In this document: piece by piece, positions 8,114-28,236 of the stretch
Layout of the letters: each line of letters begins with the position of its first letter
Position numbering within the stretch: position 1 is the first letter of the stretch
IMG/VR virus record: IMGVR_UViG_3300002307_000135
Location: 1 to 34,700 of that record
Length of the DNA: 34,700 bases
Reading direction: 5' to 3' (one strand)
Source of the DNA: a virus
Lineage: Duplodnaviria > Caudoviricetes
Notes under the pieces: generated by a model
The model's database searches: none
What the model was told of the DNA's origin: nothing
Seen by the model: the letters and a program-made list of their open reading frames with translations, nothing else
Translations under genes and position numbers: made by a program

Positions 8114-9568
8114 TTAAGCTGGGCGAATTGCAAATCCATAATTGCCACCAGCCCCACCAGAAACCCAACTTGTTAGTGCGCCAACTTGTTTAGGAGAGGA
8201 ATATGTAGTTTCATTTCCAAGTCCCAATTGTCCACCATAACCAAATCCCCAAGACCACAGTGTCCCGTCAGTTTTTAAAGCAAGTGTTTGATATAAACCT
8301 GTCCAAACTTGTGACCAAGTTGTAAGCCCGCCAACTTGTTTAGGAGATGAATAACTATTTGTGTTTCCAAGCCCTAATTGACCCTGACTTCCAGATCCCC
8401 AAGTCCACAAAGTTCCATCGGTTTTAACGGCGGCAACATGATAGCCGCCACCAGCAACACTTAACCAATTAGTCAAAGTACCTACTTGCTTTGGAGAAGA
8501 ATAAAAATTTAAATTTCCTAAGCCTGTTTGACCAGCCCCAGCATCTCCCCAAGACCACAATGTACCGTCAGTTTTAATTGCGTGTGTAGATCCACCACCA
8601 TTATTCCAACTTCCTACGGATAATTTAGACCAATTAGTAAGAGCGCCAACCTGTACAGGAGATGAGTAATTAATTGACTGAGCAGAATATCCACCTTGGC
8701 CCCACGACCAAAGAGTCCCATCAGTTTTAATTGAAATCATACAACCATTAGCCACAACTAGTTTTGCCCAGTTTGTTGATGCTCCAACTTGAGTTGGCGA
8801 TGTATATGCCCTAAAGGAACCGCTGCCAGAAGTACCTAATCCCAATTGACCGTCATTGTTGTAACCCCAAGTCCACAGCGTACCGTCGGTTTTAACGGCT
8901 CCGCTAGACTGCCCGTTATCAACGCAAAATGACCAAGTAGATGCTGAACCAACTTGAACAGGAGATGAGTAGTTTTTAAGTACCCCATTGCCCATGTTGT
9001 ACCAAGTATCACCTGTACCCCATCTCCAAAGTGTTCCGTTGTTTTTTACAAAGGAAGGTGTTAAGAAATTTGCTCGTGCATTAATTGCACTAGAAGTTGA
9101 ACCCCAGTCCCCGCCAGAGCCAAGTTGTGTAGGCGAAGAATAAGACGTTATATTACCAAGGCCAAGTTTTCCAGTTGCTCCATCACCCCAAATAAACACA
9201 GTGGGCTGTAATGCTGGCGTTACACTATTACTTGCTGCACTTGCTGGGCCTGTGCCAGTTGCGTTAGTAGCTGTTACTGTGAATGTATACGCCGTTCCGT
9301 TGGTCAAGCCAGAGACTGTAATAGGTGATGCAGATCCCGTGCCAGTAAAGCCGCCGGGGCTGGATGTGACTGTGTAGCTTGTAATGGTGGCAGGTATGCC
9401 GAGATCTGTTGGCGCAGTAAAAGTTACAGACGCACTTAAGCTACCAGCAGTAGCAGTGCCAATTGTGGGTGCACCCGGTGGGCGAGGCCAAGTCCCCGCA
9501 GCTTTAGCATTGGCTTGGCTGCTGAGGTTCCAGATGCCTGAGTATTGAACGCTTGATGCTGTTGCCAT
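8114..9568 (-). CDS. Fibronectin type III + RCC1-repeat beta-propeller protein (putative fibre/adhesin, type B2)
   Basis: PGAPTIGTATAG...VSGLTNGTAYTFTVTATNATGTGPASAASNSVTP is FN3. About 7 repeats of KTDGTLWxWGxxxxGQLGLG...YSSPxQVG are RCC1/BLIP-II blades. Confidence 0.88.
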   Translation of the reverse strand: MATASSVQYSGIWNLSSQANAKAAGTWPRPPGAPTIGTATAGSLSASVTFTAPTDLGIPATITSYTVTSSPGGFTGTGSASPITVSGLTNGTAYTFTVTATNATGTGPASAASNSVTPALQPTVFIWGDGATGKLGLGNITSYSSPTQLGSGGDWGSTSSAINARANFLTPSFVKNNGTLWRWGTGDTWYNMGNGVLKNYSSPVQVGSASTWSFCVDNGQSSGAVKTDGTLWTWGYNNDGQLGLGTSGSGSFRAYTSPTQVGASTNWAKLVVANGCMISIKTDGTLWSWGQGGYSAQSINYSSPVQVGALTNWSKLSVGSWNNGGGSTHAIKTDGTLWSWGDAGAGQTGLGNLNFYSSPKQVGTLTNWLSVAGGGYHVAAVKTDGTLWTWGSGSQGQLGLGNTNSYSSPKQVGGLTTWSQVWTGLYQTLALKTDGTLWSWGFGYGGQLGLGNETTYSSPKQVGALTSWVSGGAGGNYGFAIRPA

Positions 9569-9571
9569 GAT

Positions 9572-10705
9572 TTATCCTAGCGCAATAAAGGAACTGTATG
9601 TGGCAGCTACAGCAAGCCAAGGAGAGCTAGAGCCTAACTGCGTTGGTGATGATCTATCTCCAGCGCCTGAACCTAAACCAAGTTGTCCAGCATTATTTCT
9701 GCCCCATGTCCAAAAAGTTCCATCTGTTTTAATAACAGCAGTGCTGTTATTGGTAATAACACCCAAAGACCAATTTGTTAACGATCCGACTTGTTTTGGT
9801 GAAGAGTAATTGGTTGTATTACCAAGTCCAAGTTGACCGTAATTGTTTTTACCCCACATCCACAGTGTGCCGTCGGTTTTTACTGCTCCAGTATTTCCGC
9901 AATCTCCCCCATTATTTCCTAAAACTTTTGACCAGTTAGTTAAAGCTCCAACTTGTTTTGGAGAGGAGTAATAAGTCGTATTGTTAAGACCGAGCATTCC
10001 AGTATTATTTAATCCCCAAGACCATAAAGTTCCATCGGTCTTTACCGCCAACATTGAAAAATATGCTCCCGTTACTGCAAGCCAAGTAGTTAAAGCGCCA
10101 ACTTGTTTTGGTGAAGAGTAATAAGTTGTATTACCTAACCCTAATTGACCGTAGTTATTTCTTCCCCAAGTCCATAATGTGCCATCTGTTTTAATGGCTG
10201 CTGCACCTTGTTGGGGGGTAACGTAAACTTTTTTCCAAGTGGTAAGCGACCCTACTTGTTTAGGAGAAGAATAGTCAGTTACATTACTTAAACCTAAAGT
10301 ACCAAACCCGTTATATCCCCAAGACCATAAAGTTCCATCTGTTTTTACAGCAAGAGTGCTTTCTCCACCAGAACTAATATTTGACCAATTGGTAAGTGCG
10401 CCAACTTGTTTTGGAGATGAATAATTGGTAGTGTTACCAAGACCAAGTTCGCCTGATGAGTTAAACCCCCAAGCCCAAAGAGTACCATCGGTTTTTATTG
10501 CAAATCCTATACCAGTTCCACCGCCTAATGAAGCCCAAGTAATTAATGATCCAACTTGTTTGGGGGATGAATATGTTGTTGTGTTGCCAAGTCCAAGTTG
10601 ACCAGAGTTATTAGAACCCCAAGCAAATAGGTTGTAAGTGTAAGTAGGCGCAGCCAGCGGGTTGTACCCCGGCTTGTTGATCCCAGCGGCATATCTGAAG
10701 CTCAC
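9572..10705 (-). CDS. RCC1-repeat beta-propeller protein (type A2)
   Basis: Seven ~50-aa KTDGTLWxWGxNxxGxLGLxNTTxYSSPKQVG repeats after a short N-terminal leader (KPGYNPL). Confidence 0.9.
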   Translation of the reverse strand: MSFRYAAGINKPGYNPLAAPTYTYNLFAWGSNNSGQLGLGNTTTYSSPKQVGSLITWASLGGGTGIGFAIKTDGTLWAWGFNSSGELGLGNTTNYSSPKQVGALTNWSNISSGGESTLAVKTDGTLWSWGYNGFGTLGLSNVTDYSSPKQVGSLTTWKKVYVTPQQGAAAIKTDGTLWTWGRNNYGQLGLGNTTYYSSPKQVGALTTWLAVTGAYFSMLAVKTDGTLWSWGLNNTGMLGLNNTTYYSSPKQVGALTNWSKVLGNNGGDCGNTGAVKTDGTLWMWGKNNYGQLGLGNTTNYSSPKQVGSLTNWSLGVITNNSTAVIKTDGTFWTWGRNNAGQLGLGSGAGDRSSPTQLGSSSPWLAVAATYSSFIALG

Positions 10706-12471
10706 GCTACGCTCCTAAGTAATGGCTTCTCACCCAACCGTGCTTTGATTTGGTCAAAGGGTGCAGACCAGTCACCAAACACCTCTTGCCTGAACAGGCG
10801 CATGGAATCATAGTAGGGGGTCTTGTCGCCGTCAAGGGCATAAAGGAAGTACGGCATGATCGGCGTGATTACCCATGTCTCAATGCCCATCGCAGCCGCA
10901 ATATGGCTCACGCTGGTGCAAGACGATATCACTAGATCACAGCTTGCCGCTGCTGCCCGTGTGTCTTCCCATGTGTTCAGAGGAACTTGTTTGACCCAAG
11001 GCGGTGTGGCCTCTGCGCCCTCGTCGCGCTGCAAGCTGATGAACTCGTAGTCGCTGTCCTTAACTGCGTCAAACATCAACTCGTAGGGGAACTTCTTGTG
11101 ATGCTCATGCTCAAACTTGCTGTTGCCCTGCCAGCGCAGACCGATACGCTTCTTGCGTCCCTTGATGGTCACAGGCTTGGAGATGTACGGCGCACCAGAC
11201 AGATCAGCAAGCTCCAGCCCCAGTGGGACTACGGCAGACATACCAGCCACCCATGAGTCGTGGTAGATGCCAAACACTGCCTCGTGCTGGATGACAGAAG
11301 AAACACCTTCAACGCCGACAAACAGGCTTGCCAGCGGGCCAGAGCAGGACACGATTACCTTGCAGCCGCGATCAGCGATCATCTTGGCATAGCGCACCTG
11401 ATGGATCTGGTCACCCAAGCCGCCTTCCAAGTACAGCAGGATTGTTCCCTTGGTCTTGCCATCCCACTGCGGTGTGGGTACATCTGGGTGCTTGTTGCCG
11501 AACACACCAGCAATACGGCCTCTGTCCATCAACTGGTAGCCCTTTTGGATCTGACTTTGGCGCAGGTAGTACCAGCCACGGTTGTAAGCAGCGCGATGGT
11601 TGTTTGGCTCCTCTGCCTCCAGTTTCTGGGCAATGCGCCAGCCTTCAGCAAAGTCACCAGTGGTGGATGCCGCCAGCATGAGGTCAAGATCGTGCAACTC
11701 AGGTACTGTGCGTGGGCGCTCAAGCCAGAACTCAGGCTGGCAGAACGTGCCGTAGTGGGACTTCAGTAGCTCACGGGGGTCTTGTTTGTGTTGGGCGGCG
11801 AGTACAGGTTTGACATCGTGCATACCCGCATGACCGTGCAACTGCTCATCGTCCTCTGCTACCGTGGAGCCGTCGATGTTGTTGAAGTCGTACTCAAACG
11901 CTGGTAGCTCCAAGAACTCGTGGATACGGGCCAATTGTCCTTTGGGGTCTGCCAGCAGGTCTTCGTACTCCACAAACAGGAAGTTCTCTGGTGCGTACTC
12001 AAAGCCGTTTTGCAGGGAGATGTAAGCAGCCCGTAGGTGATCCATTAGCTGACCAGTGTGCATGAACTCATCCAAGTCGGCTGGCTTGGCTACACGGATA
12101 AACGATGCAGCGCAGTCAGGCACGGAGCGGACGGTGGCAATGATCTTGGGAGGACGATCCAGCACTTGGGCCATAGCGCCCATGATCTGTGCAATGGGCC
12201 AGCCACGGGACTTGTCGATGATGACGGGCTTGTCGGTGTCCTCGTAGAACGCATCAATGGCCCCGCGCATGGTCTGGGCCAGCTTCTTACGCTCTGGGTC
12301 ATTCTCATTTAAGAGGCCAGCAGAGTGCCAAGTGTTTGCCAAGCCATCCAGCGCATGAACCAGACCAGATGTGGTGGACACATGGGTCATTGGGTTCTGG
12401 TTCAAAATAGCCGCAAGGACTGTCGAGCCAGAGCGAGGGATGCCAGAGAGGAAGTGCAGTGTTTTGTTCAT
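10702..12471 (-). CDS. Sulfotransferase - TPR-like - GT-B (family 9-like) glycosyltransferase fusion, 589 aa
   Basis: Start MNKTLHF at 12471. SGIPRSGST (5'-PSB loop), IDKSRGW, VRSVPDCAAS (3'-PB) and VEYEDLLADP mark the sulfotransferase. A helical repeat (HRAAYNRGWYYL) follows. EGGLGDQI, IGLRWQGN, FISLQ, DLVISSCTSVSHIAAAMG and PYYDSMRLFRQ...GDW mark the GT9-like domain. Confidence 0.85.
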   Translation of the reverse strand: MNKTLHFLSGIPRSGSTVLAAILNQNPMTHVSTTSGLVHALDGLANTWHSAGLLNENDPERKKLAQTMRGAIDAFYEDTDKPVIIDKSRGWPIAQIMGAMAQVLDRPPKIIATVRSVPDCAASFIRVAKPADLDEFMHTGQLMDHLRAAYISLQNGFEYAPENFLFVEYEDLLADPKGQLARIHEFLELPAFEYDFNNIDGSTVAEDDEQLHGHAGMHDVKPVLAAQHKQDPRELLKSHYGTFCQPEFWLERPRTVPELHDLDLMLAASTTGDFAEGWRIAQKLEAEEPNNHRAAYNRGWYYLRQSQIQKGYQLMDRGRIAGVFGNKHPDVPTPQWDGKTKGTILLYLEGGLGDQIHQVRYAKMIADRGCKVIVSCSGPLASLFVGVEGVSSVIQHEAVFGIYHDSWVAGMSAVVPLGLELADLSGAPYISKPVTIKGRKKRIGLRWQGNSKFEHEHHKKFPYELMFDAVKDSDYEFISLQRDEGAEATPPWVKQVPLNTWEDTRAAAASCDLVISSCTSVSHIAAAMGIETWVITPIMPYFLYALDGDKTPYYDSMRLFRQEVFGDWSAPFDQIKARLGEKPLLRSVA

Positions 12472-12482
12472 GTGCTTTGAAA

Positions 12483-13643
12483 TTAAGTGGTTGCAATTGC
12501 TAAAGCGGTGTACCCACCGCCAGCAACGGTAAGCCAAGTAGTTAAAGAACCAACTTGTTTTGGTGATGAGTAGGCAGTAGCATTATTAAGGCCTAATATT
12601 CCATAAGTACTTGGCCCCCACGCCCAAAGAGTATTATTAGTTTTAATAGCCAAAGAAGCCCCTGAAGAAATTATTATAGAATTCCAAGTAGTAAGTGCGC
12701 CTACTTGTTTAGGGCTGGAATAATAAGTGGTGTTTCCTAAGCCAAGTTGACCACTAGCATTTTGCCCCCAACTCCAAAGAGTTTTATCTGTTTTAACAGC
12801 TAACGAGTAAATAGCAAATTTATTATTTATATTTGACCAATTAGTAAGAATTCCTACTTGTTTAGGGGATGAATAGTACGTGAGATTGCCAAGACCTAAC
12901 TGACCATTAAGGTTATTACCCCATGCCCAAAGTGTGCCATCTGTTTTAATAGCTAGAGTAAAATTTCTACCGCAAGAAATATTAGACCAAGTAGTTAAAG
13001 CACCTACTTGTTTAGGTGAAGAGTAGTAAGTAGCGTTGTTTAAACCTAATCTACCATCTGTACCTCTCCCCCAAGACCAAAGACTTCCATCAGTTTTAAT
13101 AGCTCCAACATGATAATTTCCACCCGAAATTAGTAACCAAGTGGTAAGTGCGCCCACTTGTTTTGGAGATGAATAATTAGTTGTGTTTCCTAAGCCTAAC
13201 TGTCCAAAATCATTTTTACCCCAAGCCCAAAGCGTACCGTCATTTTTTATCGCTAAAGATGAAATATAACAATTTGTAATTGATAACCAATTTGATAGAC
13301 TTCCTATTTGTTTAGGAGAAGAGTAATTAGTAGTGTTTCCTAAACCTAATTGTCCAAAATCATTTTTACCCCAAGCCCAAAGCGTATTATCTCCTTTAAT
13401 AGAAAGGGCACTATTTCCACTATTAGATAATTTTAACCAAGTAGCCAGTAATCCAACTTGCTTTGGAGAAGAGTAATTGGTGGTGTTGCTTAAGCCGAGT
13501 TGACCGCTAAAATTTTTTCCCCACGAATAAAGGTAACCAGCGCCCGCAACAGGCCAAGTCCCCGCCGCAATGGCAGCATTTACCTGCTGCATTGTCCAGA
13601 TGCCTGAGTATTGAACCCCTGTGACTGTTGTAGTGACTGGCAT
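12483..13643 (-). CDS. RCC1-repeat beta-propeller protein (type B1)
   Basis: Start MPVTTTV at 13643, just after the upstream stop. Leader QYSGIW...AAGTWP, then seven RCC1 repeats. Confidence 0.9.
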   Translation of the reverse strand: MPVTTTVTGVQYSGIWTMQQVNAAIAAGTWPVAGAGYLYSWGKNFSGQLGLSNTTNYSSPKQVGLLATWLKLSNSGNSALSIKGDNTLWAWGKNDFGQLGLGNTTNYSSPKQIGSLSNWLSITNCYISSLAIKNDGTLWAWGKNDFGQLGLGNTTNYSSPKQVGALTTWLLISGGNYHVGAIKTDGSLWSWGRGTDGRLGLNNATYYSSPKQVGALTTWSNISCGRNFTLAIKTDGTLWAWGNNLNGQLGLGNLTYYSSPKQVGILTNWSNINNKFAIYSLAVKTDKTLWSWGQNASGQLGLGNTTYYSSPKQVGALTTWNSIIISSGASLAIKTNNTLWAWGPSTYGILGLNNATAYSSPKQVGSLTTWLTVAGGGYTALAIATT

Positions 13644-13644
13644 A

Positions 13645-14790
13645 TTAATAAAGTAATGCAGTGCTAAAGTATTGACCAGCAGCAACATTTATCCAAGTTG
13701 TTAAAGATCCGACTTGATTGGGTGAAGATTTATATGTTCCAGATCCTGATGTACCAAGGCCAAGTTGTCCACTGGCGTTATAACCCCAAGACCAAAGTGT
13801 ACCGTTTGTTTGTGTTGCTAATGCCATACTCCCGCCTCCGCTCACTGAAGACCAGTTGGTTAAAGCGCCAAGTTGTTTGGGGGAGCTATAACTTGTTTGG
13901 TTGCCCATACCTAAAGCGCCTTGGCTTCCTTCTCCCCAAGCCCATAAAGTTCCATCTGCTTTGATGGAATACATCGCGCTGTTTCCGCCTTTTACAGAAA
14001 CCCAATTAGTCAAAGCCCCAACTTGCTTTGGGGACGAATAGTACGTTGTATTCCCTAAACCCAAATTACCCGCGCTATTTCTACCCCAAGTCCATAAAGT
14101 TCCATCAGTTTTAACTGCAAATGTAGACGCATAAGTACCGCCAACAATAGACCAGTTGGTCAGTGCGCCAACTTGTTTAGGCGAAGAATAGTACGTTGTA
14201 TTACCTAAGCCAAGTTGGCCTACATAACCAGAACCCCACGCCCATAATGTGCCATCTGTTTTAATAGCAAATGTTGCATAAGCAGTGCAACCTGTATTTT
14301 TCCAAGTAGTTAAAGCACCGATTTGCGCAGGAGAGGAGCGATATGTTGTATCGCCTAACCCCAAACATCCTTGGGCGTTGTTTCCTACTCCCCAAATAGT
14401 ACCATCTGTTTTTGTAAAAATAAAATGATAACGACCTGAACTAACAGTATTCCAGTTAGTTAAAGATCCAACTTGTTTAGGTGATGAATAGCTTGATGTA
14501 TTTCCTAAACCAAGCTGCCCATAACCGTTATATCCCCAAGTCCATAATGTGCCATCAGTTTTAATTGCTGCTACGCTGTTGTAAGCTGCCTTAACTTTAC
14601 TCCAAGTGTATAAAGACCCAACTTGAACAGGGGAAGAATAATTGGTTGTACTGCTTAAACCAAGCGCTCCGCCAGAGCCAGATCCCCAGCTATACAAATA
14701 CGGGAAATAAGTAGTCGTGGTCGTTTGTGTCCCCAGAGGATTGAACCCCGGCTTCACAATACTACCTTGGAACATTTGTCGTAAAGACAT
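13645..14790 (-). CDS. RCC1-repeat beta-propeller protein (type A1)
   Basis: Leader KPGFNPL, then seven RCC1 repeats. Confidence 0.9.
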   Translation of the reverse strand: MSLRQMFQGSIVKPGFNPLGTQTTTTTYFPYLYSWGSGSGGALGLSSTTNYSSPVQVGSLYTWSKVKAAYNSVAAIKTDGTLWTWGYNGYGQLGLGNTSSYSSPKQVGSLTNWNTVSSGRYHFIFTKTDGTIWGVGNNAQGCLGLGDTTYRSSPAQIGALTTWKNTGCTAYATFAIKTDGTLWAWGSGYVGQLGLGNTTYYSSPKQVGALTNWSIVGGTYASTFAVKTDGTLWTWGRNSAGNLGLGNTTYYSSPKQVGALTNWVSVKGGNSAMYSIKADGTLWAWGEGSQGALGMGNQTSYSSPKQLGALTNWSSVSGGGSMALATQTNGTLWSWGYNASGQLGLGTSGSGTYKSSPNQVGSLTTWINVAAGQYFSTALLY

Positions 14791-23621: not shown

Positions 23622-23918
23622 TTACGCAGCGACTTCTTCCTCTTCGTCAGCAGACTCCTCGTCTTCCTCAACGTCGATTTCAACCCAGTCATCTTCGTCA
23701 GCGTCATACATATACCAAACGTCGTTCTCCTCGTCCAGCCAGTACGCATTGCCTTCGTCGTCGTACACGTACTCTTCCTCGTCGTCCTCGGCTACTTCAT
23801 CGTCAATGCCTTCCATGCGCTCAACAAAGCCGACCATAGCCACGGTCTTCCAAAACTCAGTGGTAGAAAACTCAACGCTTTCGCCCCAACCCAAATCAAT
23901 TGTCAACTTAAAGTCCAT
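23622..23918 (-). CDS. Extremely acidic small protein (98 aa)
   Basis: Start MDFKL with AGGGG upstream; about 40 Asp/Glu versus 3 Lys/Arg; has its own terminator. Confidence 0.8.
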   Translation of the reverse strand: MDFKLTIDLGWGESVEFSTTEFWKTVAMVGFVERMEGIDDEVAEDDEEEYVYDDEGNAYWLDEENDVWYMYDADEDDWVEIDVEEDEESADEEEEVAA

Positions 23919-24046
23919 GATAAACCCCTGTAAAAATGGTGCAGCACGGCGCTGCGACCACATCTTATGCACGATTTATGACACTTTAAGGCGCTAATGT
24001 CTGAGAATTTAACCATGCAAATTTAACGTCAGACTTTAAAATTACA

Positions 24047-24121
24047 TGGTTGCGGAGGCCGGGGTTGCACCGGCGATCTTTCGGTTATGAGCCGAACGGA
24101 TTCCTACTTTCCCACTCCGCG
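24047..24121 (-). tRNA. tRNA-Met(CAT), initiator (fMet)-type, with encoded CCA
   Basis: CGCGGAG TG GGAAAGTAGGAATCC G TTCGG CTCATAA CCGAA AGATC GCCGG TGCAACC CCGGC CTCCGCA ACCA: full cloverleaf with C1xA72 mismatch and purine11:pyrimidine24. Confidence 0.92.
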
Positions 24122-24129
24122 ATATAGGT

Positions 24130-24369
24130 TGTTGGTGGTTGTGCACATAAAGCAGTGTAGCCTGATTTATCCGAAATGGAACTCCAACGGCGGCGCTAAC
24201 CCGCCGGACAACCACCAACACGGCTGGGGACTGCACTTAAAGTCGGAACGCGTCCCACGGCTTCTAGCTGCCTCAATCCCCATGCGTGTTGATGTTGGTA
24301 CTCGCTGCACTGTGGGCCGCATGGGTTCAAGACTCAATTGTTTTAAACCACAGCATCCGCTTTCCCAAC
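24130..24369 (-). ncRNA. Candidate cluster of three consecutive structured small RNAs upstream of the tRNA
   Basis: 13-bp perfect inverted repeat 24130-24142/24208-24220; interrupted stem CAACACG-CA-TGGGGA/TCCCCA-GC-CGTGTTG across 24216-24291; GTTGG/CCAAC plus CTGTGG/CCACAG stems across 24294-24369. No credible CDS here. Confidence 0.6.
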
Positions 24370-24385
24370 GACGCGATCATACAAC

Positions 24386-24410
24386 AAAAAAGGGCTCCCG
24401 AAGGAGCCCT
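24386..24410 (-). terminator. Rho-independent terminator after the major capsid gene
   Basis: AGGGCTCC-TTCG-GGAGCCCT followed by a T run. Confidence 0.88.
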
Positions 24411-24432
24411 CTCAGCAGGGGTAAACCCTAGC

Positions 24433-25344
24433 TTAGTAAGAACCAGCCGAGCCGTAGATGCCCAGAGGATCAGACCAGCCGAAGCTGTAACGCTCACGAG
24501 ACTTGTAACGGACGTTGCCGGTATCGAAGTCGCCGTCCATGCTGTTTTGCAGGGCGACGCGCTCGAAGTGCTTCAGGCCGTTAGGTACGTCTGTGGTCAG
24601 GAACCAAGCGTTGGGGTCGGTCAAGAAGTGGTTAACAGTGTATCCCTCGGGGATCGAACCGTTATTCTTCAAGGCATTGATGTCGTTGTTGTTTGTACCA
24701 ACGCGCAGTTCTGTTTCCAGCAGGCGGGTAGCAACGAACATCAAGGCAGTCGGGATCACCAACTTGCGAGGCTTAGCAGCGATCAACAGGCCACGCTCGT
24801 CCGTCCAAGCGGCGATCTGGATAACGGCGGCTTCCAAGGAAGTCTCGTTCAGATCGGACTGGGTAGTCGGAGTATTGCTGTTGGTACCGCCATTGACCAG
24901 CGGGTGGGAAGTGCTGAACAGAGAAACGCCATCGCCGCCAACGTATTGGGCAGAGAAACCGTTGTTCAAAACAGCAGCAGCTTTAACCTGCTTGGTGTAC
25001 GCCATAGCGCGGGCCAGACCTTTGGTGTAACGAGCAGACAGGCTGTCGTACAGGTTGTCCTCAATCGCCTCTTCGGTGATCGAGAAGCCCAAGGCAATGG
25101 TCTCGTGGTTGTAGCGTGCAGTCCATGCTTCCTGTGCATTGTCATACTGGATGGCAGAGCCCTCGCCTTTGACAGGTGCAGCAGAAAAACCAGACAACTT
25201 GGTCTCTTCTTCAAAGCTACGCTCGGAGGTTTCGGTTTCATAAATTTCTTTATGTTCCTCGCCATAACGGGCGTACTCAAGACCAAACAGGGCGTTAAGC
25301 CCGGGGAGCAACTCTTTAAGTAGCTGTGCGCGTGAAATAGCCAT
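24433..25344 (-). CDS. Major capsid protein (Mu gpT-like family, HK97 fold), 303 aa
   Basis: MAISRAQLLKELLPGLNALFGLEY, SERSFEEE, FSITEEAIEDNLY, NHFLTDPNAWF, DFDTGNVRYKSRERYSFGWSDP; AAGGAG RBS; followed by a terminator. Confidence 0.92.
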   Translation of the reverse strand: MAISRAQLLKELLPGLNALFGLEYARYGEEHKEIYETETSERSFEEETKLSGFSAAPVKGEGSAIQYDNAQEAWTARYNHETIALGFSITEEAIEDNLYDSLSARYTKGLARAMAYTKQVKAAAVLNNGFSAQYVGGDGVSLFSTSHPLVNGGTNSNTPTTQSDLNETSLEAAVIQIAAWTDERGLLIAAKPRKLVIPTALMFVATRLLETELRVGTNNNDINALKNNGSIPEGYTVNHFLTDPNAWFLTTDVPNGLKHFERVALQNSMDGDFDTGNVRYKSRERYSFGWSDPLGIYGSAGSY

Positions 25345-27614: not shown

Positions 27615-28049
27615 TTATGCGCGGGTAATTCCGCGTGGGTCGTCCACCACCGCATCGACTTGATCGTCATTGATGAGGCGGAACTCTTTGCCGTAAATCT
27701 TGAGGCGCGTACCAGAATATGTACGTGTCACCACAAAGTCTCCGGGTTTGCACCAAGGGCCGCTAGGGAACTTGGCGGGATCTTTATACGCATCGGGGCC
27801 TACCTTCAAGACAAACAGCACGGTGGTCGCGTGTTCTTCCTGACGGATGTAGGTATCGGGGCGCTCAAGATCAAGCTCGGTACCGGACAGCTTTGTCGAT
27901 ACTTCGGGCAGAACACACAGCAACTTGTAGCCTGTCGGCTCAGGAAGCATGGTGCCTTTTTCTTCAGCAGTAGCGTCGTCTTGCGGTTTATCCTGTGGCT
28001 GGATACCGGGCGGAAGACTCATACCGGGTGGCAAAATGATATTACTCAT
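27615..28049 (-). CDS. groES: GroES/Cpn10-like co-chaperonin
   Basis: PTGYKLL..., VLKVGPDAY, CKPGDFV, YSGTRLKIYGKEFRLINDDQVDAVV align with GroES PLxDRV / VLAVGxG / VKVGDxV / YxGTEVKxDGEEYLIxxExDILAVV. Confidence 0.8.
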   Translation of the reverse strand: MSNIILPPGMSLPPGIQPQDKPQDDATAEEKGTMLPEPTGYKLLCVLPEVSTKLSGTELDLERPDTYIRQEEHATTVLFVLKVGPDAYKDPAKFPSGPWCKPGDFVVTRTYSGTRLKIYGKEFRLINDDQVDAVVDDPRGITRA

Positions 28050-28236
28050 CTGATTTTTCGACTTTCTCTGCAAGGTCAATGACATAACGCTCTGCAACGG
28101 CTAGACCCTGAATAACGCCGCAGAGTTTTTGATACTCATCAAAAGTTCGACACACCCCTCCCGCCAAGTCGTCAGCGTAGTTGTTCATGTCCTTACGTAT
28201 TTGGTCGCGCAATACGTTTGCGAATTGTTGGATCAT
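28042..28236 (-). CDS. Small conserved protein downstream of portal (64 aa)
   Basis: DDLAGG...FDEYQKLCGVIQGL; overlaps the portal stop. Confidence 0.8.
   Translation of the reverse strand: MIQQFANVLRDQIRKDMNNYADDLAGGVCRTFDEYQKLCGVIQGLAVAERYVIDLAEKVEKSDE

Follow-up and report, generated by a model that had tools for sequence, protein, structure and literature searches.

The CI RNA of phage P4 belongs to the C4-like phage antisense RNAs. C4 of phages P1 and P7 is described, in the accessible part of PMC5320573, as a stem-closed RNA of about 77-90 nt that is matured from a longer transcript and in which variable single-stranded parts, one of them lying over a ribosome-binding site (RBS), are set in a constant structure. 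For processing signals of the T7 R1.1 type, the available sections of PMC1540722 state that cleavage can be restricted to one strand by an internal loop, leaving a protective 3' hairpin. The base-pairing sRNA GcvB carries a G/U-rich segment complementary to A/C-rich sequence beside the Shine-Dalgarno (SD) sequence (PMC3879156, excerpt). Moreover, the accessible part of PMC4933390 lists T4 band C/D and PAK_P3 sRNA1/2 as RNAs of about 100 nt beside phage tRNAs with unknown function; according to the same source, a function is known for only a small number of the small RNAs of lytic phages.

The stretch of DNA analyzed here (the window) is a 34.7-kb tailed-phage fragment carrying terminase, portal, capsid, tail and lysis genes. 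Its capsid protein shows 62-72% identity to those of MinM2/Yong1, DSL-LC04 and HTVC023P-type phages. Comparison with homologous sequences establishes that three conserved and covarying phage RNA families, termed units I, II and III, are inserted behind the terminator of its capsid gene (Table 1). All coordinates and pairings that a first-pass annotation had assigned to these units on the minus strand, including the 5-nt overlap of units II and III, were correct on re-checking against the sequence. Its statement that they belong to no known family was borne out by an Rfam 15 scan of the three units in the window and 40 homologous loci, in which only tRNAs reached the gathering threshold; C4 (RF01695) gave no match even at E 5-10. 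In cultured phages, the units yielded only tRNA, terminator or chance matches. Furthermore, no description of the three RNA families was found among the literature matches listed, and no motif match was obtained in seven supplementary files of PMC10690425.

As far as the cited excerpts describe these systems, unit III resembles C4 in its constant fold, its variable part predicted to cover an RBS and its predicted processing from a precursor. Unlike C4, which has a' and b' loops, it features a single extended open segment flanked by two hairpins, neither a covariance-model match nor a target in its own genome was found for it, its carriers lack a tyrosine integrase, and its 5' end is linked to either an RNase III-like stem or a promoter. 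Unit II shares with T7 R1.1 the long irregular stem, the U-A/U·G distal box and the predicted cut register, but separates non-coding RNAs, has a lower stem in common with the next unit, carries highly diverse tops (56 clusters among 110) and possesses a non-canonical proximal box. The G/U-rich open segment of unit III, enriched in UGUUG, recalls GcvB; in contrast to GcvB, unit III is phage-borne, forms a closed circle of stems without a terminator tail, and has a segment that is swapped between phages. Like T4 band C/D and the PAK_P3 RNAs, the cassette consists of small RNA units adjoining a phage tRNA, but its modules follow a fixed grammar and carry swappable inserts.

Table 1. Coordinates of the RNA units and neighbouring features in the window.
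Feature	Position	Strand	Remarks
Major capsid protein gene	24433..25344	-	Upstream neighbour of the RNA units
Intrinsic terminator of the major capsid gene	24388..24413	-	Insertion starts directly behind it
TATGAT, -10-like hexamer	24376..24381	-	6 nt ahead of G24369 (first base of unit I)
Unit I	24294..24369	-	Covarying P1, GAAA/AGUA internal loop, inner stem, folded cargo
Unit I cargo, 32 nt	24316-24347	-	Folded
Unit II	24216..24291	-	18-position irregular stem, core 24220-24287
Unit II cargo, 40 nt	24234-24273	-	
Unit II distal-box-like U-A/U·G step	24231-24232 paired with 24275-24276	-	
Predicted RNase III cut	between U24220 and G24219	-	G24219 corresponds to the predicted start of promoter-led unit III copies
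Unit III	24130..24220	-	13-bp closing stem; predicted antisense sRNA scaffold
Unit III hairpin A	24188-24206	-	
Variable 30-nt segment, predicted guide	24158..24187	-	Sub-family anti-SD UUCC(U), window UUCCA
Unit III hairpin B	24144-24157	-	Second conserved hairpin
tRNA-Met(CAU)	24047..24121	-	C1·A72 mismatch, encoded ACCA

The RNA block is a mobile insertion behind the capsid terminator. Near-identical capsid terminators are followed by nothing, by unit III only (L425), by units II and III (L409), or by another first module together with units II and III and the tRNA (L232). At the empty sites of L121, L122, L152 and L140, the terminator is directly followed by the next gene; comparison of the relatives' loci revealed that the -10 box is present at filled sites and missing at empty ones. 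The tRNA-Met(CAU), which we take to be of the initiator type by the C1·A72 rule, lies 8 nt from the end of unit III and is missing at empty sites of close relatives as well. None of the units was present in the fetched loci of 80 capsid relatives (86-96% identity; 0/80), 71 of which had at least 300 nt of downstream sequence, and unit III was also found in phages of other capsid types. No protein common to all 14 carrier genomes was found, which led to the rejection of a dedicated phage-encoded protein partner, and a tyrosine integrase was detected in none of 13 carriers, compared with 14 of 14 controls; both results fit the use of host enzymes by lytic phages. The spacing of TATGAT corresponds to the family mode (6-7 nt), although the box has no -35 partner and is absent from the sigma-70 scan list.

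Further features were noted in the window and at related loci. A highly acidic ORF of 116 aa (23622-23972, minus strand) directly follows the tRNA and is retained in empty-site relatives; it has no PHROG or NCBIfam match, and its product could be a nucleic-acid mimic. A recurrent non-coding motif, CCCAGCAGACGATGCAACGATT, lies about 60-150 nt past the capsid stop and upstream of the next gene in L123, L124, L127, L128, L130-L133, L138 and L143, and represents a candidate structured leader RNA. Moreover, the tail region (8114-14790, minus strand) contains four ORFs with RCC1 repeats, and a GroES-like gene scoring under the curated cut-off is located between the portal and scaffold genes (27615-28097, minus strand).

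By exact patterns, unit I is represented in roughly 1600 viral stretches (an estimate from 6 of the 64 parts of the viral set), unit II in about 250 and unit III, searched with its 5' half, in about 140. Single-sequence folding supports units II (z -3.7) and III (z -4.1) and offers no support for unit I (z -0.5), the structure of which is backed by covariation among its homologues: 451 of 468 cells of stem P1 are paired, compared with a mean of 294 and a maximum of 328 in 1000 shuffles that ignore kinship, and up to four Watson-Crick types occur per position. In unit II, compensatory changes from ACG/CGU to AAG/CUU and AUG/CAU were observed in copies located via unit III starts. The stem of hairpin B of unit III (n=108) has CAC/GUG in 101 copies, CUC/GAG in three, and CGC/GCG and CCC/GGG in two each. 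The homologue and covariation check thus returned three families with covarying stems. The idea of constant scaffolds bearing variable inserts was likewise sustained; in unit I, for instance, the constant parts GAAAGCGGAUG and GCAGCGAGUA flank inserts that fall into 98 clusters among 121. Sequence comparison also supports the postulated co-transcribed cassette of such scaffolds, its transcription being predicted.

Based on these comparisons, the following mechanism is proposed, which we consider slightly better than an even bet in its complete form: an inserted, swappable cassette yields one RNA that is cut by host RNase III to provide unit III as an anti-RBS small RNA. Transcription would proceed from the cassette's own -10 box, with G24369 as the start. 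Unit II may fold during transcription by borrowing the first GUUG of the next unit as its lower stem, whereupon RNase III, positioned by the U-A/U·G distal box, would nick the 3' strand at 24220|24219. After the cut, the GUUG would switch to the closing stem of unit III, which would explain the overlap of the two units. RNase P acting at the 5' end of the tRNA, followed by trimming, could generate the 3' end of unit III, and the freed RNA of about 90 nt would cover SD and C/A-rich enhancer sequences, thereby reducing target translation. Unit I, together with its own cargo and that of unit II, may persist as RNA protected by a 3' hairpin, which is the least supported of these steps.

Unit I is a scaffold with a folded cargo and would most likely act as a protein-binding carrier, again the least supported element of the proposal. 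Its GAAA/AGUA internal loop is presumably loop-E-like, and the unit may resemble domain V of group II introns, CsrA loops or CRISPR repeats. The unit directly follows the C-terminus of an SSB-like protein in 43 of 115 cases. The inserts of both units I and II adopt folds (paired fraction 50-56%, mean z about -1.2). Those of unit I are not enriched in anti-SD words (19 versus 33 in shuffled sequences). A search of GTDB returned 35 matches to unit I, about 20 of which keep both stems as judged by eye; 14 of the latter are located in Burkholderiales/Betaproteobacteria records, the sole pointer to a host. Since copies are present in the genomes of cultured Cupriavidus and Comamonas, part of the proposal is testable at once. 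As a separate observation, cargo types common to the scaffolds of units I and II were recorded for 4 of 121 at a score of at least 14 (shuffles 0-2), e.g., in L046, L224, L051 and L228.

Unit II is likely a processing stem and not a guide, because unit III starts at the register of a predicted RNase III cut. According to the available sections of PMC1540722 (Pertzev and Nicholson), the distal box of E. coli RNase III consists of U-A followed by U·G, the wobble being stringently required, and forms part of a helix of 11 bp; cleavage of a substrate of 34 nt yields a product of 28 nt. A cut of the 3' strand 13 nt from the distal-box A is deduced from these values, so that with this A at 24232 the predicted cut falls at the G of GUUGG; the box rules are those of E. 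coli and may not transfer. The 13-nt offset coincides with the predicted +1 of unit III in 57 of 65 cases, the product end itself being a prediction. After exclusion of 80 reverse-strand re-reads, the U·G of the distal box was found to be kept in 157 of 165 sense-strand copies (C-G in five), and in an unbiased set of unit II copies U-A occurred in 27/27 and U·G in 23/27. The proximal box, mostly U-A, A·G, C·C, G-C, does not correspond to the canonical GC, AU/UA, AU, AU/UA. Its position 4 is G-C in 242 of 245 copies, a pair classified as a catalytic antideterminant (PMC1540722, same sections), which could confine cutting to one strand or mean that no cutting occurs. Three of the 27 copies carry a loop of merely 4-5 nt, which indicates that the stem works without cargo. 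Anti-SD words are not clearly enriched in unit II inserts (44 versus 36 shuffled). In the structural ensemble, the shared GUUG is paired with unit II at 16-30% and with unit III at 63-84%, and can therefore join either unit, which a switch following the cut would require.

The 5' context of unit III follows a simple pattern. Among 89 distinct copies, 58 are located directly behind the 3' strand of unit II, only one of them with a -10 box, whereas 26 of the 31 others are preceded at a distance of 5-8 nt by a -10 box (3.9 on average and at most 11 in shuffles). AGU at exactly -13 was found in 57 of 65 promoterless copies versus 1 of 28 promoter-led ones; eight promoterless copies carry AGU at 18 too, and none does so at other offsets from 8 to 19. 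As both contexts are nearly exclusive, promoter and unit II appear to be alternative makers of the same first base. This promoter-or-unit-II rule and the exact RNase III register are new here. The release of the RNAs by tRNA processing, as envisaged in the first-pass annotation, could apply at most to the 3' end of unit III, because its 5' end is linked to either unit II or a promoter.

A different maturation route, in which every unit mimics a tRNA precursor and is cleaved by RNase P at G+1 of its acceptor-like stem, unit II being just another cargo RNA, is considered unlikely, even though several features agree with it. RCY (mostly ACC) directly follows P1 of unit I in 91 of 115 copies (the first pair being G-C in 81 of these 91), U precedes unit III in 70 of 89, an Rfam-called tRNA (L304) has the same 7-bp GUUGGUG/CACCAAC stem, tRNA-like D arms occur after unit II in 7 of 115, and C4 is matured by RNase P (PMC5320573, accessible part). 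However, the tail of unit III reads ACC in only 13 of 89 copies, and empty unit IIs exist. Moreover, promoterless unit IIIs lie at a fixed distance of 13 nt from the U-A/U·G step of unit II (57/65), whereas, to our knowledge, RNase P requires no conserved leader. Cutting of unit II by RNase III remains the preferred route to the 5' end of unit III.

The earlier layout of unit III was accurate for the 13-bp stem and the first hairpin but overlooked hairpin B, the presence of which limits the open segment to the 30 nt given in Table 1. Within the family, this segment comprises 18-42 nt and is A/U-rich (38% GC, 34% paired); in the window copy it is partly paired in its own predicted fold, and its anti-SD word is weaker than that of the family. 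When a single member was drawn from each family, strict anti-SD words were found on average in 16.5 of 38 guide families, compared with 5.8 (maximum 12) in shuffled segments, while sense GGA is not enriched (12.4 versus 12.1). The anti-SD word is placed in the 5' half of the segment in 17 of 20 cases, and 14 of 55 contain UGUUG, which is complementary to CAACA, versus 1.7 shuffled. Reverse-complemented segments read as enhancer, SD and spacer, sometimes with ATG (L451, L376, L439), as would be anticipated for an RNA that covers a start region. Judged from these sequence features, the variable middle of unit III is predicted to pair with ribosome-binding regions of messages that are most likely host-derived. 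Of the antisense role suggested for all three units, this likely retains the part concerning unit III, whose segment is open and enriched in anti-SD words; the folded inserts of units I and II, without clear anti-SD enrichment, do not qualify as single-stranded guides. Likewise, the CAT triplets interpreted as anti-start codons are not enriched (unit I, 37/114 versus 48 shuffled; unit II, 51/145 versus 58; unit III, 33/115 versus 44), and a function as decoy for RNA-sensing defence found no support.

Alternatively, unit III could be a protein- or ribosome-binding decoy whose loops bind a host factor and whose middle is a spacer or a general mimic of the 16S 3' end, a reading we judge to be quite improbable. 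It would account for the almost invariant loops of both hairpins, for the lack of a strict anti-SD word in over half of the guide families and for the failure of every target test to provide a specific target, but not for the strand-specific enrichment of anti-SD words and UGUUG with its bias to the 5' half, or for the persistence of related but distinct segment families across unrelated phages.

Searches for targets of the predicted guides gave no specific result. The target pattern was absent from 301 family genomes (0/301), occurred in 17 of 61 genus genomes, under the reversed control, and in 4 of 251 further genomes versus four control matches; of two metagenome scans, one gave none and the other 23 chance-like matches. 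Pairing of 116 guides with 960 start regions of G313, one genome of the genus of G001 from which 1.8 of 2.95 Mb (61%) were covered, scored 30.6 for real and 30.6 for reversed guides, and no unit III target was found in the sampled Burkholderiales. The best match in G313 was that of the L399 guide to the isocitrate dehydrogenase (icd) leader (score 41 versus a shuffle maximum of 33), partly conserved in 7 of 9 leaders and with z -4.1 for the window guide. This candidate was rejected: the match is located upstream of a conserved, -10-like TAGAAT and is hence probably not part of the mRNA, and z < -2 was also reached by 19 of 100 unrelated guides. A conserved element TTGTGACTGATTT precedes TAGAAT in 7 of 9 icd leaders of this genus (L701-L707) and is probably a promoter or operator. 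The missing target is weak evidence against an antisense function, because the target genes may be variable. Contigs homologous to the units, and contigs only, were present in three of four RNA libraries (unit III in X14; unit I in X15 and X17); their shares are small, and capsid relatives are covered too.

It is very improbable that unit III controls early genes of its own phage or keeps out competing phages in the manner of C4 immunity. This assumption has a precedent in C4 (PMC5320573, accessible part), and reverse-complemented guides resemble phage start regions in a k-mer model (z 8.1 versus 3.8 for the sense strand), a model that is confounded. On the other hand, the targets of 17 guides in their 14 own genomes were no better than those in other genomes or of shuffled guides (mean rank of the own genome 7.8 of 14), so self-targeting was rejected, and a two-seed match in G383 is located within a coding region; furthermore, a scan of viral contigs for the target pattern of the window gave five matches, none convincing, and the 13 carriers lack a tyrosine integrase. 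The notion of unit II as an attC-like DNA recombination site, with the units as integron-style cassettes, is scarcely credible and was rejected: its CAAC...GTTG ends and 5-nt spacers presumably resemble the attC layout and the modules are visibly shuffled, but the AAC/GTT triplet is variable (CAAG in 38 of 245 copies), the inner stem has no extrahelical base, tyrosine recombinases are missing (0/13 carriers, 14/14 controls), and promoter spacing and the GAAA/AGUA loop indicate RNA.

Returning to unit III as an anti-RBS small RNA released from unit II, a wider interpretation is offered tentatively and with more doubt than the mechanism itself: lytic freshwater phages may share a protein-free, programmable RNA-silencing toolkit in which unit II serves as connector and a retargetable unit III directs guides of 20-40 nt against the RBSs of variable host genes, e.g., those for defence. 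If true, this would represent a phage-host arms race at the RNA level. The three abundant, uncatalogued families have a grammar in which the cut is predicted to the base and the guide is readable from the sequence. Should mRNAs of host defence or metabolism prove to be the targets, the guides would amount to a list of what uncultured lake phages must switch off, and the unit III scaffold could become a compact silencing tool.

Additional modules were observed near the units. Modules opened by GTTGG after unit II (L201-L319; n=115) comprise 11 of the GAATGCG(C/T)AGGCTGATG type, seven of the GTTAAGCCAGCA type, seven tRNA-like and 75 others, and 88 of the 115 close on a complementary hexamer versus 27 in shuffled sequences. 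One of them (L304, 188-300, minus strand), located directly behind unit II, is a tRNA that has a GTTGGTG/CACCAAC stem and whose anticodon arm carries a long insertion. Furthermore, sub-threshold matches to Betaproteobacteria toxic sRNA and anti-hemB (E 1.5-2.3) lie just upstream of unit III in L444 (190-248) and L449 (140-194).
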